In this document: positions 27,453 to 46,995 of the stretch, piece after piece
How the letters are laid out: every line of letters starts with the position of its first letter
Position numbering within the stretch: the stretch's first letter is position 1
Assembly (NCBI GenBank): GCA_963782055.1
Contig: CAWAIF010000003.1
Span: 4,384,001 to 4,448,000 of the forward strand
Length of the DNA stretch: 64,000 bases
Direction: 5' to 3'
DNA from: an uncultured delta proteobacterium
GTDB lineage: Bacteria; Myxococcota_A; Polyangia; Polyangiales; Polyangiaceae
The notes under the pieces: model-generated
Database searches by the model: none
Seen by the model: the letters and a program-made list of their open reading frames with translations, nothing else
What the model was told of the DNA's origin: nothing
Translations under genes and position numbers: made by a program

Positions 27453-27488
27453 CCACGCGGCAGCGCGCCCGTCCGACTAGCGCGTGCT

Positions 27489-27588
27489 CACCCTGGTCCG
27501 TCCTTCCAGTGACACCGGACGGCCCCACTTCGCATAAGATGGATTCCGTAAACTTTCGCGCCCGACCGCGCTAGGATTTCCTATGCGC
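27489..27588 (+). repeat. Repeat A copy R1
   Basis: Direct sequence match. Confidence 0.97.
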
Positions 27589-27901
27589 TACGTTCCGGCC
27601 AGGGCTCATCGAAGGTGAAACCCTCTAGCATGCTGAGTCGGCCAGAACGGATGAAGAGCACGAATCCGACACCGCGGACTAGGCCGCCGACCTCTGCGTA
27701 AACATCGCTGATCTGGAAGTCTCCATCTGCGAGTGGTGCGCCTGCATCCACAGCGAAGTCGCAAAAAAAGCCGACGCCAGTTCGCCTCCGCCCGACAACG
27801 CGAGCCGCATCGGCCTGTAGTCGAAGGGTAGCTAGTGTCGGATCATCGCCGGCGAGTTGCTTGTCGAGCACGGCGCGTTCCAATGTGCTTAAGTTATCCA
27901 T
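27581..27901 (-). CDS. Immunity-protein-like hypothetical; stop codon supplied by R1
   Basis: GGAGGT RBS; TGVGFFCDF...GFVLFIRSGRLSMLEGFTFDEPWP; lower GC. Confidence 0.55.
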   Translation of the reverse strand: MDNLSTLERAVLDKQLAGDDPTLATLRLQADAARVVGRRRTGVGFFCDFAVDAGAPLADGDFQISDVYAEVGGLVRGVGFVLFIRSGRLSMLEGFTFDEPWPERSA

Positions 27902-27928
27902 GTCAGGTCCGTACCTCCTAGCTAGGGA

Positions 27929-28028
27929 GCGCATAGGAAATCCTAGCGCGGTCGGGCGCGAAAGTTTACGAAATCCATCTTATGCGAAGTGGGGCCGTCC
28001 GGTGTCACTGGAAGGACGGACCAGGGTG
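27929..28028 (-). repeat. Repeat A copy R2 (inverted)
   Basis: Reverse complement of the consensus. Confidence 0.97.
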
Positions 28029-28487
28029 GATTACGCGCAACTTTATTCGGCATTGTATGACAGACTACGAGACGAAGCTCGCTGAGATCCATGGTCGCGT
28101 CGGGACGAATGATGCATATGTGGACTATATTCGCCCGAAGGTGGAGCGCGCGATCGACGAGAAGTACCCTGACCTGGTCGTAGCTGAGGTGGACGAGTCA
28201 TGATCCGCGGCGGGCTACGGCCGAACGCCTCAAGCAGCGGCCGTCCCGTCCGGTTCGCTTCTCGGTGCTCATCGGCGGCGAGCTGGTGCGGCTGCGGGCC
28301 GAGTGCGGGCCGGGCGACGAGTCGGAGCCGGTCATTACCATAATGTTGCCGGACGAGGATTGAAACGGAAGGAAAGGTCAAATCATGAAAGTAATAGAAT
28401 TCAACGCGGAAAAGATAGCCATGTTAGCGGTGGCCAACTTATTCGAGCAGGTGGAGTCGCTGCTCGAAAAGGTTGAAACGAGGAACT

Positions 28488-28588
28488 CACGTAGGTCCGG
28501 GTTTTCCAGTCGGAGCGAACGAACCTTTTCGTATGACGTGTGTTTCGTAAACTTTTCCCGCCCGATCGCGCTAGGATTTCCTATGTGC
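28488..28588 (+). repeat. Repeat A copy R3 (degenerate)
   Basis: 3' half TTTCGTAAACTTTTCCCGCCCGATCGCGCTAGGATTTCCTATGTGC well conserved; 5' half diverged (CACGTAGGTCCG..TTCCAGT). Confidence 0.8.
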
Positions 28589-28888
28589 CTCGCCTGGCGA
28601 GAACATGAAGCTCTCGTCGGCGTTCTGCATGACGTGCCCGTCGTCGGCGTCGAGCTCGCGGACCATGTCGCGACGAAGACGAGCGAGACCGCGCTGCACG
28701 TCGCTGAAGACGCACGGGAGGCCTGGTATGCTCTGGAAGAAGGGTCCGACGATGGACGGAGACCGTCGAGGGTGGTCCATGACCTACGAACGTGTCGCCT
28801 GGTGCTTTCTTCGTCGCTCGGTCAGCGCCGAGGCCATCGGCGGGAGGCTCGCTCCTTCGCCTCCCGAACCGCGACGATCCGCTCGACT

Positions 28889-28988
28889 CACCCTGGTCCG
28901 TCCTTCCAGTGACACCGGACGGCCCCACTTCGCATAAGATGGATTCCGTAAACTTTCGCGCCCGACCGCGCTAGGATTTCCTATGCGC
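28889..28988 (+). repeat. Repeat A copy R4
   Basis: Identical to R1. Confidence 0.97.
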
Positions 28989-29356
28989 CGCGAGCCGGGC
29001 GCGTTGGTGTGCGCGAGCTCGTCGACGAGGATGAGGGACGGCTTTCGTTCGAGCGCCTTGTCGAGGTCGAACTCCTCGACGGCGACGCCTCGGTGCTGCT
29101 CCTTGCGCCTCGGGAGCAGCTCGAGGCCGATGACGAGCCCCGCGGTGTCGTAGCGGCCGTGCGTCTCGACGATGCCGATGACTACGTCGCGGCCCCCGTC
29201 CTTCTCGAGGCGCGCCGCCTCGAGCATCGCGTACGTCTTGCCGACGCCGGGCGCCGCGCCGAAGAAGATGGTCAGCTTGCCGCGATGCTCGCGCTTCTCC
29301 TCCTCGGTGACCTGCCGGAGGAGCTCGTCGGGGTCGCGGCGCGCGCCGAGGGCCAT
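28989..29356 (-). pseudogene. kdpD: KdpD N-terminal fragment cut at R4
   Basis: GKLTIFFGAAPGVGKTYAML...LVDELAHTNAPGSR, then reads into the repeat. Confidence 0.92.
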
Positions 29357-29375
29357 TGACCGAAGATACCTCGGG

Positions 29376-31529
29376 TCAGACGAGATGGAGCGCGACGAGG
29401 ATGACGTCGATCAGCTTGATGCCCACGAACGGAACGACGACGCCGCCGAGGCCGTAAATCAGGAGGTTGCGGCGGAGCAGGGCCGCCGCGCCGAGCGCTC
29501 GGTACCGAACGCCCCGGAGGGCGAGCGGGATGAGAGCGATGATGACGAGGGCGTTGAAGATCACCGCGGAGAGGATCGCGCTCTTGGCGGTCTCGAGGTG
29601 CATGATGTTGAGCGCGCCGAGCGCCGGGTACGTGCCGAGGAAGACCGCCGGGATGATCGCGAAGTACTTGGCGACGTCGTTGGAGAGGCTGAAGGTCGTC
29701 AGCGCGCCCCTCGTGATGAGCAGCTGCTTGCCGATCTCGACGATCTCGATGAGCTTCGTGGGGTTCGAGTCGAGGTCGACCATGTTGCCGGCCTCCTTCG
29801 CGGCCTGCGTGCCGGAGTTCATCGCGACGGCCACGTCGGCCTGGGCGAGCGCCGGCGCGTCGTTCGTGCCGTCGCCGGTCATGGCGACGAGGCGCCCACC
29901 GGCCTGGTTCTCGCGGATGAGCTTGAGCTTGGTCTCGGGCGTGGCCTGCGCCAGGAAGTCGTCGACGCCGGCCTCGGCGGCGATCGCCGCCGCGGTCATC
30001 GGGTTGTCGCCGGTGATCATGATCGTCTTGATGCCCATGCGGCGGAGCTCGGAGAAGCGCTCCTTGATGCCACCTTTGACGATGTCCTTGAGCTCGATGA
30101 CGCCGAGCACCCTCTCGCGCTCGGCGACCACCAGCGGCGTCGCGCCGCGCTTGGCGATCGTGTCGACGGCGCGCTGCACGTCGCCCGGGAACGTGCCGCC
30201 CTTGGCGCGAACGTAGGCCTCGATCGCATCGGCGGCGCCTTTTCGGATCTCGCGATCCTTGGTGTCGACGCCGCTCATCCGGGTCTGCGCGCTGAAGGGA
30301 ACGAAGGTCGCGTCGAGGTCGGCCATCGCGCGCTCGCGCACGCCGAATTTCTCCTTCGCGAGGATGGTGATGCTCCGGCCCTCCGGGGTCTCGTCCGCGA
30401 TGGACGCGAGCTGGGCCGCCTCGGCGAGCGCCTCGGGCTTCACGCCCGGCGCGGGCACGAAGGACGACGCCTGGCGGTTGCCGAGCGTGATCGTCCCGGT
30501 CTTGTCGAGCAGGAGCACGTCGACGTCGCCCGCCGCCTCGACGGCCCGCCCCGAGGTGGCGATGACGTTGGCCTGGACCATGCGGTCCATTCCCGCGATG
30601 CCGATCGCGGAGAGCAGCGCGCCGATGGTCGTGGGGATGAGGCATACGAGCAGCGCGACGAGCGCGGTGATGCTGATCGGCTCCCCCTTTCCGGCCGCGT
30701 GCACGCTGAAGATGGAGAACGGCAGGAGCGTGACGCAGACGAAGAGGAAGATGATCGTGAGCGCGGCGAGGAGGATGTCGAGGGCGATCTCGTTGGGAGT
30801 CTTCTGGCGCTTGGCGCCCTCGACCATCGCGATCATGCGATCGAGGAAGGCCTCTCCGGGGTTGGCGCTCACGCGCACGATGATCCAGTCGGACAGGACG
30901 CGCGTCCCGCCGGTGACCGCGCTGCGATCGCCGCCGCTCTCGCGGATGACCGGCGCGCTCTCACCGGTGATCGCGCTCTCGTCGACCGAGGCGACGCCAA
31001 GGACGATCTCTCCGTCGACCGGGATGAAATCGCCGGTCTCGACGAGGACGACGTCGCCCTTGCGGAGCGCCGTCGACGCGACGCGCGTCACGGCGGCGTC
31101 GCGCTCCGGCCGCGCGAGCTGCTTGGCCTGGATGTCGCGGCGAGACTTGCGGAGCGCGTCGGCCTGCGCCTTGCCGCGCCCCTCGGCCATCGCCTCGGCG
31201 AAGTTGGCGAAGAGCACGGTGAACCAGAGCCAGGCGGAGATGGCGCCGATGAAACCGGGCGACGCCTCGCCGTGCCCCCCGAGCGCGTGGAAGAAGAGCA
31301 GCGTCGTCAGCAGGCTGCCGACCTCCACAACGAACATCACCGGGTTCTTGATCTGATGGCGCGGGTCGAGCTTCGCGAAGCTGGCGCCGATCGCGCCCTT
31401 GACGATCGCGGCCTCGAAGAGCGGGCGCGCGACGGCGCCTTTGTCGCCTTCGCCGGCGGCGCGATCGCGCGCGGGCGCCGCCGACGGCGCGCCGGGGGCG
31501 ACAGGTGCGGTGGGGTTCTCGTGTTTCAT
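29376..31529 (-). CDS. kdpB: K+-transporting P-type ATPase subunit B
   Basis: [27 protein letters not shown]. Confidence 0.96.
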
Positions 31530-32080
31530 CGGAGTGCGTCCAGAGCGAGGTTCAGTTCCAGCACGTTGACGATCCGGTCGGGGGTGAGCGGACCGCCGGG
31601 AGAGACAGTCTGTGCGTCGATGAGCGACTCGACGCGTGCGACCGGCAAGCCGCGGGCGTGGGCGACTCGCTCGGCCTGGTAGCGCGCGGCCTCGGCGCTG
31701 ATGTGGGGATCGAGGCCGCTGCCGGACGCGGCGACGAGATCGGCCGGGATGGGCTCGTCGGCGGTGGCCGCGTACGTCCCGACGAGCTTGGTCGCGCGGT
31801 CGGTGAGGTCCGAGCTCGTCGGCGACTTGTTGCTGCCGCCGGCGGCCGAGGCGTTGTAGTCGACCGCAGAGGGCCGCGGCCAGAAGTACTTCGGGCTCTC
31901 GAACTTCTGAGCGATGAGCCGGCTGCCCACGACCGCACCGTTCGGCCCGCGCAGGAGCGAGCCCTCGGCGCCGTCGTGGTCGACGACCTGGGCGAACGCG
32001 AAGACGAGCAGCACGTAGCCGACGACGCAAACGAGGATCGTGGCGAGCGCGACACGCAGACTGGCGAGGAGCGATTGCAT
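31526..32080 (-). CDS. kdpC: K+-transporting ATPase subunit C
   Basis: [29 protein letters not shown]. Confidence 0.95.
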
Positions 32081-32090
32081 GGCTTTACCC

Positions 32091-33767
32091 TCAGTGCATG
32101 AACTGGAAGTGCTCGGCGATGGGACCGAGCGCCGCCACCGGGAAGAAGGTGAGCGCTCCGACCACGACGATCGTCGCGGCGAGCATCACCCCGAAGGTGC
32201 TGTCGCGCACGCCGAGCGTCCCGCTGGACTCCGCCGTGGCCTTCTTCGACGCGAGTGACCCGGCGATCGCGAGCGGAAGGATGATGGGGATGAAGCGCGC
32301 GAGCATCATGACGACGCCGGTCGCGATGTCCCAGGGCGCCGTCCCGTCGCCGAGGCCCTCGAACCCCGAGCCGTTGTTGGCGCTCGCCGAGCTGAACTCG
32401 TAGAGCATCTCGCTGAAGCCGTGGGGGCCGGTGTTGTTCAGCGTCGTGGTCCCCCAGGACGTCACGGCGAAGATCGCCGTGCCGCCGAGGACGAGGAACG
32501 CATGAGCGAGGAGCGCGAGCGCCGCGAGCTTCACCTCCCGCGCCTCCACGCGCCGGTTCAAGTACTCCGGCGTGCGGCCCACCATCATCCCGGCGATGAA
32601 GACCGCGATGACGATGTAGAGGAACATGTTGATCATCCCGACGCCGACGCCGCCGAACGTCTCGTTGAGCCACATCCCGATCATCGGAAAGAGCCCGGTC
32701 ATCGGGTTGAGGCTGTCGTGCATCGCGCCGACCGAGCCGTTGCTCGTCGAAGTGGTCATGACCGCCCAGAGCGGCCCGGTGGCCGCGCCGAAGCGGAGCT
32801 CCTTGCCCTCGAGGTTCGGCAGATGCGTGATCGGCAGGCCCGCGAAGGCCGCCGTCGGCGCCTGCTCGAAGTGGACCGCGCCGCCGACCTTGACGAGCAG
32901 GAGCGCCATCATGACGGCGAAGACGACCGTCGCGTGACCCATGCGCGAGGTCATGCGGCCGAACATCCACACGCACGCCATCGGGATCTGGGTGATCGCG
33001 ATCAGCTCGACGGCGTTGGTCCAGAACGACGGGTTCTCGAACGGATGCGTGCTGTTCGGGCCGAAGAAGCCGCCGCCGTTGGTGCCGATCTGCTTGATGG
33101 CCACGAAGGCTGCAACCGGACCTCGGGCGATGAGCTGCTCGGCGCCTTCGAGCGTCGTCGCGTGGGCCGCGCCGTGGAAGGTCATCGGCATCCCGCCCAG
33201 GGTCAGGAGGAAGGCGACGCCGACCGCGACCGGCAAGAAGACGAGGAAGGTCGCCCGCTGGAGGTCGACGAAGAAGTTCCCGAGCTGCTTGCGCCCGGCG
33301 AGTCCGCGCGCCATCGCCGCGAGCGCGGCGACGCCGGTCGCCGCCGAGACGAACTGGAGCCACATCAGCGCGAAGAGCTGCGAGAGGTAGCTCATCTGCT
33401 GCTCGCCGGAGTAGTGCTGGAGGTTCGTGTTCGTGGTGAACGACGCCGTCGTGTTGAAGACGGTGTGGGGCTCGAGCGCCTTCATCCCGTCCGGGTTGAG
33501 CGGCAGGTGCTGCTGGAGCGCCATCACGCCGTAGCTCACGACGAACATGACGACGTTGAAGACGAGCATGTCGACCGCGTACCGCTTCCAGCCGTGCTCT
33601 TCGCGGCCGAGCTTGCCGGCGACGGCCACGAAGAGGCGGTCCAGCCGCTCGCGGCGCGGACCGGCGCTCTCGCCGGGATCCATGGCCCATTTCATGTAGC
33701 GACCGAGCGGCCACGAGAGCGCCGCGCAGCCGCCGACGATGAGAATGACGAACAGGAGCGCGCTCAT
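32091..33767 (-). CDS. kdpA: K+-transporting ATPase subunit A
   Basis: SFTTNTNLQHYSGE, KQIGTNGGG, NNGSGF. Confidence 0.96.
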   Translation of the reverse strand: MSALLFVILIVGGCAALSWPLGRYMKWAMDPGESAGPRRERLDRLFVAVAGKLGREEHGWKRYAVDMLVFNVVMFVVSYGVMALQQHLPLNPDGMKALEPHTVFNTTASFTTNTNLQHYSGEQQMSYLSQLFALMWLQFVSAATGVAALAAMARGLAGRKQLGNFFVDLQRATFLVFLPVAVGVAFLLTLGGMPMTFHGAAHATTLEGAEQLIARGPVAAFVAIKQIGTNGGGFFGPNSTHPFENPSFWTNAVELIAITQIPMACVWMFGRMTSRMGHATVVFAVMMALLLVKVGGAVHFEQAPTAAFAGLPITHLPNLEGKELRFGAATGPLWAVMTTSTSNGSVGAMHDSLNPMTGLFPMIGMWLNETFGGVGVGMINMFLYIVIAVFIAGMMVGRTPEYLNRRVEAREVKLAALALLAHAFLVLGGTAIFAVTSWGTTTLNNTGPHGFSEMLYEFSSASANNGSGFEGLGDGTAPWDIATGVVMMLARFIPIILPLAIAGSLASKKATAESSGTLGVRDSTFGVMLAATIVVVGALTFFPVAALGPIAEHFQFMH

Positions 33768-33859
33768 GGCTTTTGCTCCGTACGCGCCGTCGCGCTGGTG
33801 AGCGCGAACATCAGCGCGAAGCACGCGAGGCCGAGCAGCAGGTAGAGAAGGTTGCTCAT
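33764..33859 (-). CDS. 31-aa hydrophobic peptide between kdpF and kdpA
   Basis: MSNLLYLLLGLACFALMFALTSATARTEQKP; ATGA overlaps with both neighbours. Confidence 0.6.
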   Translation of the reverse strand: MSNLLYLLLGLACFALMFALTSATARTEQKP

Positions 33860-33948
33860 TGCATCGACTCCGGTTTCAGCATCGCGAACATCAGGTAGAC
33901 GAAGAGCGCGGCGGCGACGACGAGGCCGATCCAGTAAAGGGGTGTCAT
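33856..33948 (-). CDS. kdpF: K+-transporting ATPase subunit F
   Basis: MTPLYWIGLVVAAALFVYLMFAMLKPESMQ; YLxxAxxxPE signature; AGGAG RBS. Confidence 0.85.
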   Translation of the reverse strand: MTPLYWIGLVVAAALFVYLMFAMLKPESMQ

Positions 33949-33961
33949 GGGAGACTCCTGA

Positions 33962-35353
33962 TCAGAACCAGGCGGTGGCGCCGAGGGTGAGGGTGTCTTG
34001 GGAGGTGGTGTTGGGCACGTACGGCGTCGTGACGCCGTCGCCGGTGACCTGACCGCGGAAGAACATGTCGCCGTCGGCATGGTCGTGGCGGTACTCCAGC
34101 CGGATGGAGAGGTGGTCGGGCGTCGGGCGGACGTCGATCGTCGCCGTGGCCGAGCTGACCCAGTCGGTGGGCCAGAGGATGGCGGACGCGCCGGTCGGAA
34201 CGGACTCGTAGAAGGCGTCGCCGCGCGCCGCGAGGTAGAGCCAATCGGCGATCTTCACGCGCGCGTAGAGCGCGCCGGCGGCCCAGCTCGACGTCCCGAA
34301 GCGGTTCGGCTCGAAGCCGCTGTTCGCGTGCAGCAGCATCGAGAAGCGCGAGTTGAAATCGAGCTGAGCGTAGCCGTCGAAGTCGCTCCGCCAGTACGGC
34401 CCCTCCGGCGCTCCGGTCGACCGCTCGACGCCGCCGAAGTAGAGCAGGTGTCCGGTGAAGATGCCCTTCTTGTAATCGACGCTCGTCGAGACCGATTTTT
34501 CGTCGTTGTTGTCGACGACGCTGTTCCAGCCGTTGTAGCCGGCGAGCGTCGCGACGAGACCGTTGCCGAAGTCGTAACTGGCGCGAACGCCCGTGTGATA
34601 GGCCGGCAGCGCGAAGAACACGTCGGAGCGCGACCAGTTCCAGTTGTCCTTGGCCGCGATCCCCTCGGCACCGATCGGAGACAGGAAGAGCCCCGCCTGA
34701 AGCAGCAGCCCGTTTCCGATGGGGGCCTTCCAGCCGAGGTTTGCCTCCTGGACGTACTTCCAGAGATCGCCGTCGCTGGCCGCCGCGCCGCCCGCCCCAG
34801 GCGAAACAGGCTCGCCGAGATAATAGGTCGACGGCGTCTGACCCACTTGCAGCACGACCTTCGCGGTGACGCTCGCGTAGTCGAGCGTGGCGCCGGCGGC
34901 GACGTTCTGGAGCGTGAAGGTGTTGTGGCGGTTGTCGTAGCCGCGATAGTTCGTGATGCCGTTGGACGGCTCGTTGAAGTTCCACGAGTACGCCGTCTCG
35001 ACGTAGCCGAGCGGCGTCACCTTGGCCTCCGGCGCCGCGTCGGTCTTCACCGCGGGGGCCACCTGCGCGGGCGGCGCGGCGGAGGACTGCGCCGCCGACG
35101 CGGTGGGTTGCGCGGCGCTGGGCTGCGCAGCGGCGGTCGTGGCCGGCGGCGGGGGCGCGGTCTGCGACGGGGCGGCGCTGCCCTGCTGGGCGGTCGAGGT
35201 CGGCTGTCCTGCGTCCACCGTCGCCGTCGCCTGCGCCGTCTCGCTCGGCGCGGGCTGCGCGAGCACCGGAACGGCGAACGCGACGACCGAAAGGCACGCG
35301 ACACCGGCGAGGATTCGAGAGCGAGAGTGGGTCATGGCTTTTGAGGAGGTCAT
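33962..35353 (-). CDS. Putative outer-membrane porin/beta-barrel
   Basis: Signal peptide, GYVETAYSWNFNEP, NWNWSRS, C-terminal F; first gene of the kdp unit. Confidence 0.75.
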   Translation of the reverse strand: MTSSKAMTHSRSRILAGVACLSVVAFAVPVLAQPAPSETAQATATVDAGQPTSTAQQGSAAPSQTAPPPPATTAAAQPSAAQPTASAAQSSAAPPAQVAPAVKTDAAPEAKVTPLGYVETAYSWNFNEPSNGITNYRGYDNRHNTFTLQNVAAGATLDYASVTAKVVLQVGQTPSTYYLGEPVSPGAGGAAASDGDLWKYVQEANLGWKAPIGNGLLLQAGLFLSPIGAEGIAAKDNWNWSRSDVFFALPAYHTGVRASYDFGNGLVATLAGYNGWNSVVDNNDEKSVSTSVDYKKGIFTGHLLYFGGVERSTGAPEGPYWRSDFDGYAQLDFNSRFSMLLHANSGFEPNRFGTSSWAAGALYARVKIADWLYLAARGDAFYESVPTGASAILWPTDWVSSATATIDVRPTPDHLSIRLEYRHDHADGDMFFRGQVTGDGVTTPYVPNTTSQDTLTLGATAWF

Positions 35354-35557
35354 GTCGATGGCGCGTGGACGTTAAGGACCGGCGAATAAAGAAACGATAA
35401 ATTCGGCGTTTCGCCGCGCGCGGTCGCTCGAGGGCAGCAAGGCATGGGCCACCTCTGCAGAGCGCGCATGTCCCCTTCGCGGGAAGCGCGCGCCCACGCG
35501 TAGCACGTGTGCGGGTGGGTCATGCGCTCACGCCATGCACCCAGCGACGGACCACGG

Positions 35558-35770
35558 TCAGTGTCGCGCCGCAGGCGCGGCTTGTGTCTCCGCTGACTCT
35601 TGAAAGAGGGGTCGAGCTCCAGCGCGCGCGCCGCGCTCCGACTGGGCCGCGATCGACGCCACGACCGCGAGCAGGGCGAGCGAGGTGACGAGCGAGCCCA
35701 CCAACCAGGCGATGGGAACGACCGAGTCCACGAGGCGCATGACTTCTGGCGGGGTTACGTCGGGCTTCAT
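35558..35770 (-). CDS. Small membrane hypothetical protein
   Basis: ATG start, one TM segment. Confidence 0.35.
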   Translation of the reverse strand: MKPDVTPPEVMRLVDSVVPIAWLVGSLVTSLALLAVVASIAAQSERGARAGARPLFQESAETQAAPAARH

Positions 35771-36028
35771 GATGCGATCACGTTAGGAACCGCGCGCCAA
35801 AGAAACGGTAAATTCGGTTCGGACTCCTCCGTTTGAGCGCGATGGCTCGCGCCCGCCGGCGGCAGCGGCGCGAGCCGGCAACAGAGAGACTACTCTCGCC
35901 GGCGTCCGGTGACTCCGGTTGGCGTTGCGCACCGGCGGGGAGGACGAGGCTGGCTCGGCGAGCGAAGGAAGCGCCAGGTCCGGCCATTTAGTGAGCCTTT
36001 AGCGGTGGCTGGTCATACTGCCTGCGTC

Positions 36029-36268
36029 ATGTCTCACCCTTACCGGACGCCAGCGAGCGAGCCCGAGAGCCCGGCGCCGCGCGACACGCGCGCCGCGCTG
36101 GTGCTCGACGCCGAGATCGTGCTCCTGATCATCTCGACGATTGGCGTCGTGCACGGCTGCCGGCAGGGCTTCACCGCCGTCGACGGCGCCGCCTTCGCGG
36201 CGTTCCTCTTCTCCGCGCGGGAGATTGTCCGCGCCGTGTGGCGCCGGTACCGCGTCGCTCCCGGTTGA
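36029..36268 (+). CDS. Small membrane hypothetical protein
   Basis: MSHPYRTP..., two hydrophobic segments. Confidence 0.45.
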   Translation: MSHPYRTPASEPESPAPRDTRAALVLDAEIVLLIISTIGVVHGCRQGFTAVDGAAFAAFLFSAREIVRAVWRRYRVAPG

Positions 36269-36306
36269 TCGGACGCCCCCGGGCGTACTGGCGTACCATC
36301 GGTGCG

Positions 36307-36748
36307 ATGAACCCCACCGCAGCGCGCGCCCGCACGCTGGCGCACATGCGTCGTGTGCTCGCCGGCGCCACCGTCGCCGCGGCGGGCTGCTCGCACGAAA
36401 CGGCGCCGCCCACCACCGTGGTGCTGCCGGCGGCTCCGCCCGCGTCGGTCGCCGCGGCGAGCGCCGACGCGGGAGCACCCGCGCCCTCGGGAACAGCGGT
36501 GGCCGCTGCCTCGGCGTCGGCCCGGCGCGTGACGCCGAACCTCAACCCGCTCACGACGCACCCGATGATGGGGTCGGACCCTGTGCCCCCGCCCTCCTAT
36601 TGCCCGGGCGTGGGCAAGGCCTCGAAGGCGTCGGGACGGCTGTTGCACGACGCCGCCGGCACGCTCGTGGAGCTCACCGTCTCGCTCCCCGCCTCCGGCC
36701 CGAACGCCGCGACCTTCTCCGCCGCCGGGCAGCCGTCGGCCGCGCAAC
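36307..36748 (+). pseudogene. Lipoprotein truncated at R5
   Basis: Lipobox AAGC; ORF has no own stop and reads into the repeat. Confidence 0.6.
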
Positions 36749-36848
36749 CACCCTGGTCCGTCCTTCCAGTGACACCGGACGGCCCCACTTCGCATAAGAT
36801 GGATTCCGTAAACTTTCGCGCCCGACCGCGCTAGGATTTCCTATGCGC
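36749..36848 (+). repeat. Repeat A copy R5
   Basis: Identical to R1. Confidence 0.97.
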
Positions 36849-36850
36849 CC

Positions 36851-38770
36851 ATGACCGACCTCGACAGCCCCCTGTCGACGGTGCCTCACCCCAACGACAC
36901 CCAGGCCATGCGGGCCTACACGCAGACCTACGACTACGACGAGGTCGGCAACATCCTCGGGATGTTCCACACCGCCACCAGCGCCAACTGGAACCGCCAC
37001 TACACCTACGACTCCTCCAGCAACAAGCTCGCCACGACCGAGATGCCCGGCAATCCCTCCGGCGGCCCCTACTCCGGCACCTACTCCCACGACGAGCGCG
37101 GCAACATGACGGCCATGCCGCACCTGTCCACCATCGCGTGGGACTGGGCCGACCGCATGCAGAGTGCGGACCTCGGCGGAGGTGGTACGGTCTACTTCGT
37201 GTACGACTCCGCCGGCCAGCGCGTGCGCAAGGTCTGGGACAAGACGAGCGCCCTGCGCGACGAGCGCATCTACCTCGGCGGGTACGAGATCTGGCGGGAG
37301 TCGACCGTCTCCGGCGGGACTGCCACGGTGCAGGAGGAGCGACAGACCCTGCACGTCATGGACGACGTGCGGCGCATCGCGATGGTCGAGACCCTCACGG
37401 TGACGGGCGGGAGCACCGTGACCTCGCCGACGTCACGGCAGCGCTACCAGCTCGCCGATCAGCTCGAGTCCACGTGCGTCGAGGTCAAGGAGGACGGGAG
37501 CATCATCTCCTACGAGGAGTACTTCCCCTTCGGGGCAACGTCCTTCCGGTCGGAGACCGGGGAGGTCAGCAAGCGCAGGTACCGCTACAACGGCAAGGAG
37601 AGGGACGAGGAGACCGCGCTGCACTACTACGGGGCGCGGTACTACGCGGCGTGGCTTGGGAGATGGACACGACTAGACCCGGTCACCGTTGACGGGCCAA
37701 ACCGTTATGCCTATGTCCGTAACAACCCCGTTCGCATCCGAGATCCTCACGGTCTGGCGGGAGACCCAAGACTCACCAGCCTCGAAAATGCAGCACGGGG
37801 CGCGGTTGCCGTGGTAGCCGGGAGAGTCGGGATTGACCCCGCAGCAGCAGCAAGCGCAACCGCAGACCTAGAACAGCGCGCAAGGGACGCACTGTTCCGA
37901 CAGCAGCGGCAGCACGTGGGGCCGCGACACCTAACGAGCCTCCGACGCACAGACGAGCTAAACGTTCAGACCCCTACGGAGAAACTCCACCTTCCAAAAG
38001 TGCGCTCTGCCACTACACAGGCGTTGACTGCGGGCGGCGAGGGCGGCAACGGCAGCGTACGCATACGCACATACCCAACTGGTCGACCAATACACACTGT
38101 ACCGGATCCGGTGGGACAACCTGGCGCGATCGAGGGAATGATCCCGGTGTGGGGGGCAGGCCGGACTGCCATTGATGAACTCCAGCGCAACCACCCGGTG
38201 GCGGGGATCTTCTGGTCCGGCATGGCGATCAGCGACATCTTCTTCGTCAAAGGCGCAGTGGTCGGGGGCGCGCGTGCGCTTGGCCGTCTCGCGTTCCGGG
38301 AGCTTCTTGAACAGAGCGAGCGAAATAGCGCAGAAGGGTTAGCGCGAGCGGGAAGAACTCTTTATGAGGGAGAAGCTTCGCGCGGCCTGGAGAGCCTCAA
38401 ACAGGAGCAGGGTGCAGGACGAGCCGTGGCGACACAGGAAGAGAGGGCCCTTTTCGATGCAAGCAAGACTACCGACACACTTTACCAGGGAACCGCAACA
38501 ATAGACAACAACGGCGCGCGGTTCATAAAGGCCACGTCGATTTTGGCAAAGATGCAGCTTACCGCAGTCCAGAAGGCTCAAGTAGTTCAGGGCTTTGCAA
38601 CAAAGATTGGGTTCGGATTCGGAGCGGAAGGTCTCGTCAGCAAAGATGCGTATCTACTGCTCCGTTCAGAGGACCACAGATACGCCTTCCGCTTCCTTAG
38701 GGCGACCGGCGCCATTGAGTACGGAAAGTTCGATATGGCAACCATGAACTATGCGTGGAAGCAACTATGA
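36851..38770 (+). CDS. 5'-truncated RHS protein: repeat-associated core plus unknown C-terminal toxin
   Basis: YDYDEVGN, YYGARYYAAWLGRW, YAYVRNNP..DPHG; GC drops after the core. Confidence 0.88.
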   Translation: MTDLDSPLSTVPHPNDTQAMRAYTQTYDYDEVGNILGMFHTATSANWNRHYTYDSSSNKLATTEMPGNPSGGPYSGTYSHDERGNMTAMPHLSTIAWDWADRMQSADLGGGGTVYFVYDSAGQRVRKVWDKTSALRDERIYLGGYEIWRESTVSGGTATVQEERQTLHVMDDVRRIAMVETLTVTGGSTVTSPTSRQRYQLADQLESTCVEVKEDGSIISYEEYFPFGATSFRSETGEVSKRRYRYNGKERDEETALHYYGARYYAAWLGRWTRLDPVTVDGPNRYAYVRNNPVRIRDPHGLAGDPRLTSLENAARGAVAVVAGRVGIDPAAAASATADLEQRARDALFRQQRQHVGPRHLTSLRRTDELNVQTPTEKLHLPKVRSATTQALTAGGEGGNGSVRIRTYPTGRPIHTVPDPVGQPGAIEGMIPVWGAGRTAIDELQRNHPVAGIFWSGMAISDIFFVKGAVVGGARALGRLAFRELLEQSERNSAEGLARAGRTLYEGEASRGLESLKQEQGAGRAVATQEERALFDASKTTDTLYQGTATIDNNGARFIKATSILAKMQLTAVQKAQVVQGFATKIGFGFGAEGLVSKDAYLLLRSEDHRYAFRFLRATGAIEYGKFDMATMNYAWKQL

Positions 38771-39261
38771 TAGACGAGAATCGCAGATGGCTAGCAATCT
38801 ACTTGGAGTGCGCAGGGCCTGGTGCGGCCAGCGCCCGAGCACTCGAACAGTACGGCGCGAGCGCTGTCGCCGCAGCCCGCGCACACTGGGCCGGGCGCTT
38901 TCTCATTGGGCGCACATCTATCGGAGATATACTTGATGAACTGGGCAAGCCGGAGCGCGCCGAGGGAGGCAGACTCTACTACCGACTACCTACGAGGGAG
39001 AGCTACTACTACATGCTGACGGCCAAGAACGACATTTTGGTCGGCGCGGCATTCGTACGAAAGGAAGGGGTCCGACGGCGCCCGTTTAGTCAGTTCGATG
39101 CGAGTGCGGCAGAGTTGCTTCGGCGAATGGGCGCGACTCAAGAGGAGGTCTTTGCTTGGCTTGGGCCGCCCGCGGAGGAGTTTGGTTGGTGGCCGAATGA
39201 GACGTGGAGGTACGGTGACGGCACGTTTCTCGAATTTCGACACGGAATGATGGACTTGTAG
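38767..39261 (+). CDS. Putative cognate RHS immunity protein
   Basis: ATGA overlap with the RHS stop, lower GC, small size. Confidence 0.65.
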   Translation: MIDENRRWLAIYLECAGPGAASARALEQYGASAVAAARAHWAGRFLIGRTSIGDILDELGKPERAEGGRLYYRLPTRESYYYMLTAKNDILVGAAFVRKEGVRRRPFSQFDASAAELLRRMGATQEEVFAWLGPPAEEFGWWPNETWRYGDGTFLEFRHGMMDL

Positions 39262-39376
39262 ACTCAACTGGGCATCGTCCCGCGGCATGTTGAAAGTTGA
39301 GGTGTGTTTGAACAGCGTCACGTAGATCGAGGGAGAGACGCGCCGATCTGGTCACGTTCCGCGAGGGGCGGATAAA

Positions 39377-41031
39377 CCTGGATTTCGCTCGCACCGGTCC
39401 TCGGAGCGGGCGCGGGCGTCGCACGGGTCGGCGCGTCCCGGATCGGTGCCCGGCACGGCTGCCGCGCACGATAAGCGCGTAGCGTGAGCACACGTCCCCC
39501 TTTCCCCCGCCTCGCAAACCAAGTTGTGTGCCGGTCAATTCAGCATCGGGCGAGGAGCGAGTCGCAGCTGCCAGCGACCCCCGACGCGCAGCAGGCGAGC
39601 GGGCACCAGGACGCAGGCGCGACGCATCCAGGTCGCGCGCCAGTGTGCCACGGCGGTCCCCGGGCACAGCGACAGCACCCAGCGACGCATCAGGTTGTAG
39701 GCCAGCAGCTTGAGCAGCAACGCGGCCTCGTTGGCGTCGAAGGTGTTCGTCGGGGCGTAGCCGATGCCGAAGGCGTTCTTGAGCTCGGCGAAGAGCGGCT
39801 CGATCCCCGCCCGGCCGTCGTAGAAGCGCGCCACGTCGTCGGCGTCGCGGTCGTGATCGTTGGTCAGGTAGACCTGCGCCGAGTAGTCGAGGTCCTCCCA
39901 GAGGTGGACCTGCTTGCCGGTGTCGCGCTCGCTGGTCCGCACCGCCACCACGCGCCAGCCGGGAGGCCAGTCGTCGCGGCGGAAGTCCACCACGGCGACC
40001 TGTCGCGTCGGCTCGCCGAAGGCATCGCGATCGGTCGTGCGCCAGCGCGTCGTGCGCGCGACGGCGCTCATCAGGTTGGCGGTCTGCCGCATCTTCGCCA
40101 CGAAGTACGCCCCGCCGCGCTCGACCGCAGAAAGCAGCGCTGCAGACTCTCCGCCGGAGTCGATCCGCATCGTCACCACGGCTTTCGGCGCGGCGCGATG
40201 CAGCCGTCCGATCCACTGCGCGATGTCCTCGACGTCGTCCTCGCCGATGCCCGTGTCGCCCGGCCGCAGCCGCGCTCCGAGCATCGTATCGGTCTCGGCG
40301 ATGCGCGCCAGGATCGGGTGATAGCTCACGCGGCCGTGGTAGCGCGGGTTGTAGCCGACGTGCGCTCCCTCTTGCTCGCCGAACAGCGGCGTCACCGTCG
40401 TGTCCACGTCGATGGTCAGCTCCTTGGCGCGGAGCTTGGTGAGCGGCTCGAGCCCCTGCTCGGCCATCAGCTCTTCCAGCCTCTCGAGCTCGCGGCCCCT
40501 GAAGCGCCGCAGATCGTCGTAGAGCACGTCGATGCTCGGCACGATGCCGCCGGCGAGGTGCCGGAACACCGGGTCCGTCGCGAGCACCTCGAAGTCGAAG
40601 ATGCGCCGCGCTCCCGCCACCGACGCGTCGAGCAGAAGCTGAATCTGCGCCGCCATCGGATAGACCACCTGCGCTCCGGTCTTGAGGTGCCCGAAGTCCC
40701 GCCGAAGCCGACGCCCGAGTCCAATCCCCTGCACGAACGCGTTGAAGGACGCGAGGCCCCCGAGTCCCGACAACCTCGGGTCCGGCCGCCCCACCTCCAG
40801 CCCGCTCGCGCGTGCTCGCCGCACCCGGCGATTCGCCCGCTGCCACTCCCACCCCTCGGGACGCTTGCTTCCGAGCTGCTCTCGTCGCACCTTCTGGGTG
40901 CTCGGCGTGTCGCTTGCTGTTGTCTTCATCAACTCCATCAACCGGCGCGCCGAGCGCTAAATTCCAGGGCGCGCGTCGATTTTCAGGAGCGTGCATCATG
41001 CAACCGTCGCCGGAATGGAGCGAAATCTAGG
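39377..41031 (-). mobile_element. IS1380-family insertion sequence, complete
   Basis: IRs CCTGGATTTCGCTC / GAGCGAAATCTAGG; 5-bp TSD ATAAA (39372-76, 41032-36). Confidence 0.9.
39535..40941 (-). CDS. IS1380-family DDE transposase
   Basis: IDVDTT, FGEQEGAHVGYN, RIDSG, YDGRAGIEPLFAELK. Confidence 0.9.
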   Translation of the reverse strand: MMELMKTTASDTPSTQKVRREQLGSKRPEGWEWQRANRRVRRARASGLEVGRPDPRLSGLGGLASFNAFVQGIGLGRRLRRDFGHLKTGAQVVYPMAAQIQLLLDASVAGARRIFDFEVLATDPVFRHLAGGIVPSIDVLYDDLRRFRGRELERLEELMAEQGLEPLTKLRAKELTIDVDTTVTPLFGEQEGAHVGYNPRYHGRVSYHPILARIAETDTMLGARLRPGDTGIGEDDVEDIAQWIGRLHRAAPKAVVTMRIDSGGESAALLSAVERGGAYFVAKMRQTANLMSAVARTTRWRTTDRDAFGEPTRQVAVVDFRRDDWPPGWRVVAVRTSERDTGKQVHLWEDLDYSAQVYLTNDHDRDADDVARFYDGRAGIEPLFAELKNAFGIGYAPTNTFDANEAALLLKLLAYNLMRRWVLSLCPGTAVAHWRATWMRRACVLVPARLLRVGGRWQLRLAPRPMLN

Positions 41032-41110
41032 ATAAACGAAGCCCCTCAGAAGACTTGTCCGAAGACCTTCTGAGGGGCTCGCCTCCGAGTTGTCGAGACC
41101 GGAGGTGGAC

Positions 41111-41296
41111 ATGTTCGACCAGATCGAGCTTGGGAGCGAGTTTTTCGAGGGGCTGACCAAGATCGACGAGCGGATCGCGCGGGCGGTGGCCGCACGGGGC
41201 TGCGTGTGGTGCGGGGGCCCACTGCACCGCGCGGACCATCCCCGCAAGCCACGCGGGCTGATCGCGGTCGCCGCGGAGGCCTTGGGTCGCCTGTAA
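41111..41296 (+). pseudogene. Truncated CxxC protein, probable IS accessory-gene remnant
   Basis: GGAGG RBS; GCVWCGGPLHRADHPRKPRG; ends abruptly. Confidence 0.45.
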
Positions 41297-41462
41297 TACC
41301 CCAGCGAGACTCCGGAGCCCCCTCATCAATCCGTCACGTCCAGAATCGCGCCCCCTCCGCCCACACGTCTCCCGTCCTCCCGTCACGCGCGAGACCGCCA
41401 TGTCAAAGACCGAGGCGCCGGACCGACTTCCTCTCCGGCGCCCATCGCTACCCGCTGTTGAA

Positions 41463-42788
41463 CCTGGATTTCGCTCGCACCGGTCCTCGGAGCGGGCGCG
41501 GGCGTCGCACGGGTCGGCGCGTCCCGGATCGGTGCCCGGCACGGCTGCCGCGCACGATAAGCGCGTAGCGTGAGCACACGTCCCCCTTTCCCCCGCCTCG
41601 CAAACCAAGTTGTGTGCCGGTCAATTCAGCATCGGGCGAGGAGCGAGTCGCAGCTGCCAGCGACCCCCGACGCGCAGCAGGCGAGCGGGCACCAGGACGC
41701 AGGCGCGACGCATCCAGGTCGCGCGCCAGTGTGCCACGGCGGTCCCCGGGCACAGCGACAGCACCCAGCGACGCATCAGGTTGTAGGCCAGCAGCTTGAG
41801 CAGCAACGCGGCCTCGTTGGCGTCGAAGGTGTTCGTCGGGGCGTAGCCGATGCCGAAGGCGTTCTTGAGCTCGGCGAAGAGCGGCTCGATCCCCGCCCGG
41901 CCGTCGTAGAAGCGCGCCACGTCGTCGGCGTCGCGGTCGTGATCGTTGGTCAGGTAGACCTGCGCCGAGTAGTCGAGGTCCTCCCAGAGGTGGACCTGCT
42001 TGCCGGTGTCGCGCTCGCTGGTCCGCACCGCCACCACGCGCCAGCCGGGAGGCCAGTCGTCGCGGCGGAAGTCCACCACGGCGACCTGTCGCGTCGGCTC
42101 GCCGAAGGCATCGCGATCGGTCGTGCGCCAGCGCGTCGTGCGCGCGACGGCGCTCATCAGGTTGGCGGTCTGCCGCATCTTCGCCACGAAGTACGCCCCG
42201 CCGCGCTCGACCGCAGAAAGCAGCGCTGCAGACTCTCCGCCGGAGTCGATCCGCATCGTCACCACGGCTTTCGGCGCGGCGCGATGCAGCCGTCCGATCC
42301 ACTGCGCGATGTCCTCGACGTCGTCCTCGCCGATGCCCGTGTCGCCCGGCCGCAGCCGCGCTCCGAGCATCGTATCGGTCTCGGCGATGCGCGCCAGGAT
42401 CGGGTGATAGCTCACGCGGCCGTGGTAGCGCGGGTTGTAGCCGACGTGCGCTCCCTCTTGCTCGCCGAACAGCGGCGTCACCGTCGTGTCCACGTCGATG
42501 GTCAGCTCCTTGGCGCGGAGCTTGGTGAGCGGCTTGAGCCCCTGCTCGGCCATCAGCTCTTCCAGCCTCTCGAGCTCGCGGCCCCTGAAGCGCCGCAGAT
42601 CGTCGTAGAGCACGTCGATGCTCGGCACGATGCCGCCGGCGAGGTGCCGGAACACCGGGTCCGTCGCGAGCACCTCGAAGTCGAAGATGCGCCGCGCTCC
42701 CGCCACCGACGCGTCGAGCAGAAGCTGAATCTGCGCCGCCATCGGATAGACCACCTGCGCTCCGGTCTTGAGGTGCCCGAAGTCCCGC
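41463..42788 (-). mobile_element. Second IS1380 copy, 5' end removed at R6
   Basis: Near-identical to 39377-40702 (one substitution seen, E>K); lacks the second IR and N-terminal codons. Confidence 0.92.
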
Positions 42789-42888
42789 CACCCTGGTCCG
42801 TCCTTCCAGTGACACCGGACGGCCCCACTTCGCATAAGATGGATTCCGTAAACTTTCGCGCCCGACCGCGCTAGGATTTCCTATGCGC
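42789..42888 (+). repeat. Repeat A copy R6
   Basis: Identical to R1. Confidence 0.97.
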
Positions 42889-43154
42889 TCGTCGTCCGCT
42901 TCGACGCGAAGACCCCATCCTCGCTGCCGAAGCTCCCTTCGTGGAGTGGGTCGTTTTTCTAAGACGGAGCGCGGTCGCCGAAGGCAGCTAGGTCCGGGAC
43001 TTCCAATCGGGCTCTTCTGGGTTTCGGGTGGCAGCCAACAGCGGACGGCGGTTCCCGCCGTCCCGTCGGTCCCGTCGCATGGTCGGGTGAGGCCGGCGCG
43101 TGGCGCATCAGGGCGCACGGGTTGGCGAGGCGGAGGTCCGAGGGTCTACGATGC

Positions 43155-43254
43155 CACCCTGGTCCGTCCTTCCAGTGACACCGGACGGCCCCACTTCGCA
43201 TAAGATGGATTTCGTAAACTTTCGCGCCCGACCGCGCTAGCATTTCCTATGCGC
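43155..43254 (+). repeat. Repeat A copy R7
   Basis: Variant TTTCG / TAGCAT. Confidence 0.97.
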
Positions 43255-43262
43255 TCCTCTGT

Positions 43263-43388
43263 GACATCAGCGTACGCGACGGCTGGGCTGCACGCGAGTC
43301 CGGCAGGTGTGCGAGCGTCGAATGGCAGGACACTGAGCGCGGGGGTAGCACCTACCGCGCAGTCACGCCCTCACCCCACGCGACGGCG
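43263..43388. repeat. Repeat B copy 1 (126 bp)
   Basis: Direct repeat of 46996-47121 with a few substitutions. Confidence 0.9.
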
Positions 43389-43571
43389 ACGCACCACCAG
43401 CGCGATCCCCAGCGCGAGCGCCGACAGCGCAGGCCACGAGCCGCGCGAGCTCTCCCCCGCCGCGTGACAGCCGCACCCGCCGTCCTCGTTGATCGGCGGC
43501 GCGCCCAGGCCCTTCGTCGCGCACCCTCTGAGCGCGAGGGCGGCGACGAACAGTGCGGCGGGATCGCGGGA

Positions 43572-44390
43572 TCAGTCGTAGCAATCGAGCCCCCCTGGGA
43601 GGGACGCATGGAGCGCGTGGCACACGTCACGATTGAGGCATAGGCCGTTCTGCTTCGCAACGGACTCGTCTCCCGGCGGGGACGGGTACACCGCGCACGT
43701 GTAGTTTCCCACCGTGGGACACGCCGCGATCACGGTGCCTCCCTGCACGACGCAGCGGGGAAAGGACGCAGGATCCTCGGGGTTCCCGCTGCAGCAGAAC
43801 TGCGCGCAGATCCCGATGGGGTGGTCCGGACCCTGCCCCACGCAGCGGTCCAGCGCGCCGTGGGCGGTGTCGCAAGGCCCGCACGGCCCCCCGCACATGG
43901 AGTGATCCTCATGCACGAGGGGATCGGAGTCCGGACATGAGCTGGCTGCTGGGATGGCGCGCCCATCGTACGGGACCTTGTCGCCATACCAGCATACGTC
44001 ACCGGCTCCCAGCTTGCGGAGGTCGTCGCAGACCTCAAGCGGAACGCACTCGAAGGAGCCCTGCGAGCGCTGCACGCAACCCTGCCCGGCGTCGCACACG
44101 GCGCAGGGCGTCTGCCCCCTGTCGGGCAGGTCGGCGAAGCACACGCCGTACGCCGAGTTCGAACCGTCACCCGTCACGAGCGGGATACAGCCACCGGGGC
44201 AGTCGGTCAGGTCACCGCACGTCCCGCCGCAAAGTCGCGCACCGGCCACGGTGCAGGTGGGCCCCGCGTCGATGGCGCCGCTGTATGGAGCAGGGGGCGC
44301 CACCCTTCCGCCGCAGCACACCACCGTCACCGCGACCGCGAAGGTGAGCGGCGCAAGTGCGCCTACGGCCGTCAGCCTACGGCGTTGCAT
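43572..44390 (-). CDS. Cys-rich lipoprotein
   Basis: Signal + CCGG, DAG linker, CGGxCGxC motifs; paralog of the next gene. Confidence 0.7.
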   Translation of the reverse strand: MQRRRLTAVGALAPLTFAVAVTVVCCGGRVAPPAPYSGAIDAGPTCTVAGARLCGGTCGDLTDCPGGCIPLVTGDGSNSAYGVCFADLPDRGQTPCAVCDAGQGCVQRSQGSFECVPLEVCDDLRKLGAGDVCWYGDKVPYDGRAIPAASSCPDSDPLVHEDHSMCGGPCGPCDTAHGALDRCVGQGPDHPIGICAQFCCSGNPEDPASFPRCVVQGGTVIAACPTVGNYTCAVYPSPPGDESVAKQNGLCLNRDVCHALHASLPGGLDCYD

Positions 44391-46980: not shown

Positions 46981-46995
46981 GCCACCCTCCTCGCC

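Follow-up and report, generated by a model that had tools for sequence, protein, structure and literature searches.

Between positions 28,889 and 42,888 of the window, which is the whole 64,000-nt stretch analysed here, near-identical repeats of ~100 nt (R4, 28889-28988; R5, 36749-36848; R6, 42789-42888) stand at the ends of incomplete genes. The question raised by this locus is what these repeats are, and how genes came to be severed at them and joined to other DNA. The ~101-nt repeat is read here, with a probability of about 0.7, as a miniature, of constant length, derived from the oriIS end of a rolling-circle HUH transposon of ISCR/IS91 type, and the arrays of such repeats as the work of that element. 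The head of the window array is organized as follows:

25731..27452, + strand: IS91/ISCR-family HUH transposase of 573 aa at the array head (Pfam Y2_Tnp, E=5e-28; Zn_Tnp_IS91, E=2e-16)
27488..27588, + strand: R1, native ori end of the element, a 101-nt unit; identical end in 3/3 element copies
27589..27928, no strand: cargo of 340 nt, 100% identical to C2:3479-3818, with ori ends at both sides
27929..28029, - strand: R2, the sole inverted intact unit of the proximal array
28488..28588, + strand: R3, a divergent unit (73/100 matches)
28589..28887, no strand: cargo, of which 28596-28887 is 98% identical to C3:6832600-6832888

The transposase contains both IS91/ISCR domains, zinc-binding and Y2_Tnp (PF04986, PF14319), with an HFH motif at residue 180. 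Canonical IS91, IS801 and IS1294 transposases have two catalytic tyrosines (YxxxY) and ISCR-type proteins have one; the head transposase differs from the canonical enzymes in having a single Tyr, in RYALR. The oriIS unit begins 36 nt past the transposase stop codon and, in R1, runs from its start through a hairpin and a mimic of the chromosomal dif site to the terminus ...TTTCCTATGCGC, a TTCCTAT-type motif as in ISCR. The ISCR1 end, as quoted in the available text of PMC13023784, is ...ACTTCCTATACCC. Further transposase copies lie at C3:5267127-5265159 and C3:2742741-2741136, and at all three copies the unit makes up the last 100 nt of the element. The left end of the head element is at approximately 25624. 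The two element ends are unlike each other, and the element thus has no terminal inverted repeats. In a search for terIS upstream of the gene, the left ends of the three copies had only patches in common, and the subterminal-palindrome test gave fold z-scores of -1.25 to -1.57, which are not significant. Folding of the unit itself also revealed no significant structure. The unit was rejected as a classical MITE, having neither terminal inverted repeats nor target-site duplications (TSDs), and flanks that are not contiguous.

Three arrays are present in the genome, each headed by one transposase copy and extending downstream only. In the window array R2 and two distal degenerate units are inverted, and the other intact units are direct. 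Replication-strand bias was rejected as the cause of this common orientation because the arrays at 4.41 and 5.2 Mb run in opposite directions on one replichore. Among relatives, the element's own ori end was repeated at 6 of 23 loci examined, or 6 of the 11 with at least 2 kb of downstream DNA; all 11 extra ori copies were downstream and nine were direct. No array was found in the stretch downstream of the transposase of relative G112.

The remainder of the interval, and the array beyond it, contains the following features:

28888..28988, + strand: R4 unit
28989..29356, - strand: kdpD 5' fragment, severed at the ori end of R4 (Pfam KdpD, 1-101 of 210)
29376..35353, - strand: intact porin (BBP2), kdpA, kdpC and kdpB, of foreign origin by sequence comparison (best DNA identity 82%, 60 family genomes)
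36307..36747, + strand: lipoprotein-like gene, 147 aa remaining (paralog 240 aa), severed at the R5 left end
36748..36848, + strand: R5 unit
36849..39261, + strand: RHS-type C-terminal piece, severed at the ori end of R5, then a small gene, probably an immunity gene (93% to C3:5253582-5252756)
39375..41037, - strand: intact IS1380-family element (Pfam DDE_Tnp_1_4; 99.6-99.9% to four other copies)
41461..42787, - strand: IS1380 copy 2, severed at the left end of R6, ~335 nt missing
42788..42888, + strand: R6 unit
43154..56612, + strand: units R7-R13 and their cargos (units start at 43154, 47863, 49279, 49380, 53618, 55681 and 56512; those at 49279 and 49380 are in tandem)

The original prediction held that genes are severed exactly at the repeats, and all four junctions of the interval do so, cutting kdpD, the lipoprotein gene, the RHS gene and IS1380. 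The kdpD frame (29356 down to 28989, - strand) reaches ...NAPGSR at R4, where kdpD was said to stop, and runs on into the repeat. This fragment corresponds to residues 5-121 of a 900-aa paralog in the genome, and the remainder of this second, cargo-borne kdpD was not found in the assembly. IS1380 copy 2 parts from the five intact copies exactly where the break had been placed. Of the two lipoproteins described as cut, that at 36307 retains 147 aa against 240 aa in its paralog, and that read from 49812, severed at 49480 in the R7-R13 region, retains 111 aa against 284 aa; a search of the assembly for the 3' parts of both paralogs gave only the paralogs themselves as full-length matches. The RHS piece at 36849, likewise described as cut, starts inside a homolog that extends upstream without a repeat. 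The missing parts had been stated to be absent across the repeat, and the genome as a whole agrees: 24 paired units are present, 15 are testable in that an in-genome homolog of the flank reveals its true neighbour, and by an eye tally 0/15 have that neighbour on the opposite side.

The further claim that capture ignores gene boundaries holds in that cuts can sit inside genes, but it is too strong for the genome, of which the four mid-gene cuts in four junctions of the interval are not typical. A host-like open frame is found at 24/64 junctions genome-wide, against 62.7% of random array positions in a test that is biased. Cargo ranges from 0.3 to 12 kb and is often severed within genes, and it also includes an intact kdpACB operon and a cluster of type I restriction-modification genes.

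Cargo origin was mixed. The kdp cargo, 81% identical to the genome's own operon, is foreign as judged by these identities. Two other cargos copy repeat-free loci within the same assembly, one of them C3:6832600-6832888, which has a repeat at neither end; these 98% and 100% matches indicate that the cargo is not all foreign. The 340-nt cargo holds a gene truncated 26 codons short of its end, and C2 was rejected as a plasmid donor because it carries dnaA. In addition, one cargo is present in three overlapping copies that are at least 99.9% identical (C3:5256707-5263903, 5223818-5227860 and 2731519-2738675). Their six ends are all different and every one is at a unit, which indicates that the cargo was copied out and then re-entered. 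Circular permutation of whole captured circles was considered and rejected, the cargo starting and ending in different genes or being a linear piece.

The junctions carry a simple base preference. In 34 of 37 junctions ori is followed by a pyrimidine (C or T), with positions 2-8 mixed, and in 30 of 31 the base before CACCC is a pyrimidine. Only this first base is constrained, in place of the tetranucleotide target of canonical IS91, IS801 and IS1294. The missing halves of severed sites were to be sought beside other repeat copies, and this yielded one pair only, at two distant repeats: the flank at window position 53719 complements the one left at C3:5244667, 0.8 Mb away, where the site was severed. 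On an intact paralog the left and right flanks of this pair abut with a gap of 0 for a 101-nt unit and a 1-nt overlap for one of 100 nt. This is the sole flank pair testable on an intact paralog (n=1), and it bears out the absence of a TSD. One or more joins thus look, from this alignment, like the outcome of a simple insertion without TSD whose two sides were later separated into different arrays, and insertion belongs to the history of the joins. The same-genus genomes G045 and G111 lack the unit and, at 65-81%, are too distant to reveal an empty site. The view of the repeats as joins between foreign segments rather than simple MITE insertions is accordingly upheld for the unrelated joins (0/15 simple) and the foreign kdp cargo, but not for the native cargo or the insertion in their history. 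KOPS polarity is uniform over the segment between the two arrays, so a single standing inversion between them is unlikely; an inversion near 5.25-6.0 Mb, hinted at by GC skew, was also ruled out by KOPS.

A three-step process probably accounts for these products. In the first step, the HUH transposase would nick at the ori end and halt at an internal site ~100 nt in, and the resulting miniature would be inserted before a pyrimidine without TSD, giving the left-hand joins. The split pair demonstrates one such insertion, and its chemistry is inferred from IS91/IS801. In the second, of which the products are seen, copying from a miniature would continue into the DNA on its left side and end at a substitute pyrimidine site. 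In the resulting circle, ori would be linked to the distal end of the cargo. This would give the right-hand joins and copy only one side of a severed gene. In the third, circles would enter at an existing unit and units would recombine with one another, which would give direct repeat-cargo-repeat order downstream of the transposase, move cargo between arrays and delete the rest. The recombinase in this third step is possibly, at somewhat less than even odds, host XerCD acting at the dif mimic, or RecA acting on the 100-nt stretch of identity. Two tyrosine recombinase genes, at C3:2840507 and C3:3892225, are candidates for the host's XerC and XerD. Circles were not seen, nor was any intact simple insertion (0/15) or miniature-bearing donor, though the first step predicts some transiently. 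The 340-nt cargo with its two flanking ori ends is not explained by these steps without an added inversion or second insertion, and the depletion of junctions in host-like frames needs selection or target preference on top of them.

A rival explanation is local insertion and decay, in which miniatures jump into an accessory island and their flanks are lost or exchanged through deletions or paired inversions between copies, with no copy-out capture. The split pair (C3:5244667 and window 53719) is the remnant expected from two successive inversions between opposed arrays, and IS1380 copy 2, 99.9% identical to its sisters, is severed five units from the head, which suggests cuts within the array. 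Most IS801 fragments are attributed to rearrangement in the available text of Bardaji (2011). However, deletion yields no duplicates, yet one cargo is present in triplicate, with new ends, and two repeat-free loci have been copied; all 15 testable units would have to be scars, and the KOPS polarity leaves no standing inversion. Local insertion and decay probably contributes but does not suffice, and as the whole explanation it is improbable. The absence of simple insertions (0/15), the absence of the unit at donor loci and the polarity of the arrays would suit a one-step capture. In this reading, foreign single-stranded DNA would be cut twice by the transposase and the excised piece placed at the head, between the old unit and a freshly copied one, much as spacers are acquired, and no free miniatures would exist. 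Unit identity also declines with distance from the head in the window array (rho -0.59, p=0.012, n=17), but this trend hangs on four distal copies, possibly of other element lineages, and the divergent R3 lies only 1 kb from the head. The right-half alleles are interleaved along the array, not inherited in order, and the gap-0 pair implies a real insertion; one-step capture is thus quite improbable.

Finally, the joins could be artefacts of a metagenome-type assembly in which unrelated sequences were connected at a 100-nt repeat. The right end of R3 is the only junction bridged by an independent contig among the matches listed, and that short-read contig spans it with 0 differences; in the public runs, searched as contigs, at most 20% of words matched, and missing cover at other junctions is therefore uninformative. 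The joins fall at exact unit ends, the missing halves are not in the assembly, the junction bases are non-random, unrelated assemblies have an equal layout, and the 7.0-Mb contig has one KOPS switch, at dif. Misassembly is therefore very improbable.

The dif mimic in R4 is placed as follows:

28927..28954, + strand: dif mimic inside R4, 11-6-11, its position constant across intact units

The mimic equals the chromosomal dif at C3:3558767 (- strand) in 19 of 22 arm bases, against a maximum of 14 in shuffles, and all sites with at least 17/22 in 7.58 Mb are dif or a unit. The host dif is 43 kb from the GC-skew maximum, at the KOPS switch. In 4/4 genomes with a dif candidate, each unit resembles the dif of its own host more closely than those of the other hosts. 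Cargo boundaries are the HUH unit ends, 39 and 34 nt away from the Xer-type site, and allelic variation among units lies mostly to the right of the edge between XerC arm and central region. Relatives G106 (14 copies) and G116 (8 copies) have same-direction ori-end arrays with variable left ends and without a dif core, which indicates that the mimic is not required for arrays; relative L030 likewise has no mimic.

A second IS91-type element lies within a unit:

57426..63011, - strand: second IS91-type element, inserted in unit R14 (Pfam)

It encodes a tyrosine recombinase (61986-62831) and a Y2 transposase (60999-61979; motif RYLGRY), with IS66 within, and is inserted between the XerC-like arm and the central hexamer of R14. 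An XerC-like arm precedes 13/13 left ends of this element in the genome, with unmatched central hexamers. A 1.5-kb insert (C3:4450609-4452121) was rejected as IS1202, its single ORF and inverted ends looking IS66-like by eye. Tentatively, and with the odds against it, the ori end of an ISCR-like clade may have come to contain a dif mimic fitted to the host. Host XerCD would then insert circles that the HUH enzyme has made from any neighbouring DNA, and a polar array would grow, an acquisition platform akin to an integron but composed of an HUH transposase with a borrowed recombinase. IS91-type elements would in turn parasitise this array, their tyrosine recombinase integrating at the XerC cut position. 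Neither a dif mimic in ISCR/IS91 ori ends nor a link of rolling-circle transposition to XerCD was found in literature searches; the former point may be addressed by the IS91 terminal-sequence supplements of PMC13181058.

One-ended capture and fixed-length ori miniatures are already known from IS801 and ISCR. In the available text of PMC3189936, IS801 has fixed ori-end miniatures of 229, 360 and 679 nt and carries adjacent DNA, and in that of PMC6354349 its circles have a constant border at ori, whereas the tetramer at their other border varies. The present system shares with it, as described there, miniatures without TSD, circles with a distant substitute end and copies that serve as recombination substrates. 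In contrast, IS801 ends at defined tetramers (GAAC, CAAG and similar) in those accounts, where one pyrimidine is conserved here, and neither polar chromosomal arrays nor a dif-like site is described for IS801 in the available portions of the two papers. Similarly, ISCR elements, among them ISCR28 with its 'sandwich' arrangement and additional oriIS, have an HUH transposase, a downstream oriIS and DNA between successive oriIS copies; ~100 nt of oriIS suffices to move adjacent DNA, and circles re-enter by recombination (PMC13023784 and PMC13393415, available text; also Yuan et al., 2024, as cited in the accessible part of 10.1101/2025.01.22.634252). Unlike in ISCR, each array here has about a dozen extra ori copies, which share a single fixed left end and contain a dif mimic matched to the host, and the cargo is environmental accessory DNA rather than resistance genes.

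As in integrons, an enzyme is encoded at the head of a polar array in which repeats separate the cargo. Here that enzyme is an HUH transposase instead of IntI, the repeats are near-identical instead of variable attC hairpins, and the cargo of often severed genes differs from cassettes that hold whole genes. The pdif sites of Acinetobacter plasmids are bare 28-mers, usually of alternating orientation (C/D, D/C), with module boundaries at the Xer sites, whereas the site here forms part of a transposon end, almost every copy has direct orientation and cargo boundaries are at unit ends. The two systems are alike in having many XerCD-type sites between accessory modules (PMC11705084, available text) and other mobile elements that target the XerC side, in that case of the IS1202 family (10.1101/2022.12.17.520857 and PMC10132070, available text). 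In PMC11705084, as far as its available text goes, multiple Xer sites gave cointegrates and no fragment excision.

Gene capture by ISCR and its return to a replicon are still largely inferred from resistance loci. This genome makes every step of the model testable: its three natural arrays have fixed ends, donors are present in the genome, one insertion site is split and one cargo is triplicated. If the dif mimic is inert, the arrays would be a large but ordinary instance of ISCR/IS801 behaviour. If it works, rolling-circle transposition would be linked to XerCD, which would hint at a reason for the tyrosine recombinase genes that some IS91-family elements carry themselves. For the soil bacterium itself, whole functional units, namely kdpACB, the type I restriction-modification cluster and RHS modules, would have been moved in this way.

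The repeat, a unit of about 101 nt (unit length was taken as 101 nt), is the terminal 100 nt of an element of the IS91/ISCR type. This element encodes its HUH transposase at 25731-27452 (plus strand), directly before the native ori end, R1 (27488..27588). The unit terminates in TTTCCTATGCGC, which resembles the ori end given for ISCR1 in PMC13023784. By protein and by ori, the element falls in the IS91/ISCR group; it has neither the canonical tetranucleotide target nor the canonical two-tyrosine feature. C or T precedes CACCC in 30 of 31 junctions and directly follows the unit end in 34 of 37, with no further conserved position. The right end reads ATGCGC and offers an ATG into the cargo, the DNA between successive units, for example at window 56607, 55776 and 49474; fusions might be expressed from it. 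The closest relatives of the transposase are in records from Myxococcales or Deltaproteobacteria.

In this 7.58-Mb genome (72% G+C, three contigs, of which C2 is part of the chromosome because it carries dnaA), three copies of the transposase gene each head one array, extending downstream only. The window corresponds to C3:4384001-4448000.

Arrays and associated features (C2 and C3, contigs)
C3 4.41-4.49 Mb, plus strand: array 1
C3 5.27-5.18 Mb, minus strand: array 2
C3 2.74-2.73 Mb, minus strand: array 3
C3:5227961-5238335: type I restriction-modification cargo, second array
Window 36849-41451 and 53719-55680; C3:5244668-5256606; C3:2738776-2741139; C2:3815-5998: RHS-type modules
C3:5216068, C3:6186534 and C3:2272340: group II intron (RT and maturase domains) in the second element

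Half-units are scattered at 2.27 Mb and from 5.98 to 6.33 Mb. Arrays 1 and 2 run in opposite directions within a single replichore, as judged by the polarity motif KOPS. Unit identity declines with distance from the head (rho -0.59, n=17), a trend that depends on four distal copies, and unit alleles are interleaved along the array. The end of C2 (C2:550339-554203) holds degenerate units together with the 3' end of an IS91-like sequence, perhaps a fourth, older array at an assembly break. Among relatives, the transposase 3' end was examinable at 23 of 43 loci; its own ori end is repeated at 6 of these 23, all six being among the 11 loci for which 2 kb or more of downstream DNA is available, and the extra copies are all downstream (11/11) and mostly direct (9/11).

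Genes had been seen to be severed exactly at the repeats, and this was borne out. At R4, kdpD is cut on the ori side and keeps its sequence only to residue 121 (reference, a 900-aa paralog); the remainder of this second kdpD copy is absent from the assembly. The left end of R6 is where IS1380 copy 2 breaks from its five intact counterparts; one lipoprotein is truncated to 147 residues (from about 240) and the other to 111 (from about 284); and the RHS piece 3' of R5 begins within its homolog, which runs on without a repeat. The opposite flanks are indeed unrelated, the true neighbour being found by eye across the repeat in none of 15 testable units genome-wide. Testable units were those of 24 paired units (not counting the native ends (three), R3 as a variant, or ends that are degenerate or lack a partner) in which a flank had an in-genome homolog (85% or more) revealing its true neighbour. 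Among the contig pieces listed, a single junction is spanned by an independent one, the run of which may be the source sample.

The claim that capture ignores gene boundaries holds for all four cases in the interval first considered, which are not typical of the genome. Host-like open frames contain 24 of 64 junctions against an array background of 62.7% (90-nt window), or 18 of 64 against 57% (150-nt window), after exclusion of five that lie at a native or tandem end; this test relies on host codon usage and understates cutting, since it overlooks certain cuts known in genes of atypical composition. The joined segments had also been called foreign, which fits the kdp cargo and fails for two others: cargo 27589-27928 is identical to a C2 stretch without the repeat, and cargo 28596-28887 has 98% identity to a repeat-free locus 2.4 Mb distant. 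One further stretch lies in three cargos (7.2, 4.0 and 7.2 kb) at 99.9% identity or more, its six ends all different and each touching a unit. Deletion by itself cannot have produced these copies.

The arrays and their vicinity are rich in RHS-type toxin-immunity modules; the first cargo, of 340 nt, makes up the greater part of a small gene that lies 3' of the RHS gene on C2. The second array has among its cargos a type I restriction-modification cluster that includes an adenine methylase and a SocA/Panacea antitoxin gene. A multi-copy piece inside another cargo (window 47121-47651, minus strand) reads as the putative 3' end of another IS91-like transposase.

The unit core mimics dif. The chromosomal dif (C3:3558767, minus strand) is at the KOPS switch, 43 kb away from the maximum of GC skew. 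The unit shares 19 of its 22 arm positions and 4 of its 6 central positions; all genome sites with at least 17 arm matches are dif or a unit. Ten units, drawn from this genome and from relatives, were each compared with four dif candidates: 8 beat all 200 shuffles against some candidate, one further unit gave p=0.02 with a 7-nt spacer, and one (L030) matched none of the four. The own host's candidate scored highest for all four units that have one (19 vs 14-18, 14 vs 11-13, 17 vs 14-15 and 18 vs 12-13), the three foreign candidates being picked by pattern only and two hosts having near-identical dif. Among 19 intact units, the left half does not vary in 17 and the right half carries shared variants, a pattern mildly suggestive of exchange at the core. 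The mimic has the opposite orientation to ori in one clade (L007, L010, L013), where an ori-end-like motif (GCTTGAA...) lies just outside the unit's left boundary.

A second, IS91-type element with a tyrosine recombinase and a Y2 transposase (window 57426-63011 and 12 other left ends) is found exclusively at dif-like sites, where it separates the XerC-like arm from the central hexamer, with 13 of 13 left ends immediately 3' of the arm; it is absent from the chromosomal dif itself. We take this edge to be the XerC cut point. The element's right end provides a similar arm, and at least four different central hexamers are met. The same junction could result if an ordinary IS91-type element inserted at an AT-rich target, which would leave unexplained that all copies lie at dif-like sites. 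The second element itself looks like a Xer-exploiting element. Likewise clustered, split units occur in relative G121. A group II intron splits the second element's right end at the same base in three copies. A 1.5-kb insert with a single ORF and inverted ends, apparently IS66-like, lies within a unit's XerC-like arm (L133:2609-4121; C3:4450609-4452121).

Whether the arrays themselves are Xer-assisted is doubtful. Relatives G106 (14 ori copies over 160 kb) and G116 (8 over 40 kb) have arrays of one direction in which the left ends vary and the dif core is absent, so the mimic is not required for arrays. These arrays (G106:C2:1-160000, L089-L096; G116:C8:1574001-1614000, L107-L108) hold full and 5'-truncated IS91-like copies, one full copy being followed in tandem by an ori mini of 106 nt. 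Among the open-access papers listed for IS91 or ISCR with dif or Xer, no ori end with a dif mimic was described. Xer sites of Acinetobacter plasmids formed cointegrates and their modules were not excised (PMC11705084), which by analogy would agree better with circle entry than with excision.

As to how the joins arose, the left flank at C3:5244667 and the right flank at window 53719 meet with gap 0 on two intact paralogs, the sole such pair once a tandem R9/R10 artefact is excluded. It is best read as one TSD-free insertion, afterwards divided between arrays. The noted lack of TSDs gains support from one flank pair, the only one for which missing halves were found beside other repeat copies. 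A mini would insert first, the left flank would then be copied out one-ended from it, and copies would re-enter or exchange through recombination within the unit. The products of such capture are present in the arrays; the order of events and the recombinase are inferred. No circle was observed, nor any simple insertion left intact. As the identity of the array or unit, a classical MITE, a dif module and an integron were each rejected. The system is alike to IS801 minis in mode of action, and to one-ended capture by ISCR, including the ISCR28 sandwich (Yuan 2024, as cited in 10.1101/2025.01.22.634252). IS801 forms ori minis of fixed length and carries flanking DNA along (PMC3189936), and in its circles the ori border is constant and the far one varies (PMC6354349); IS91 makes no TSD and integrates bottom-strand circles (PMC13181058). 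By this analogy, each reaction proposed for capture has a precedent in the published behaviour of IS801.
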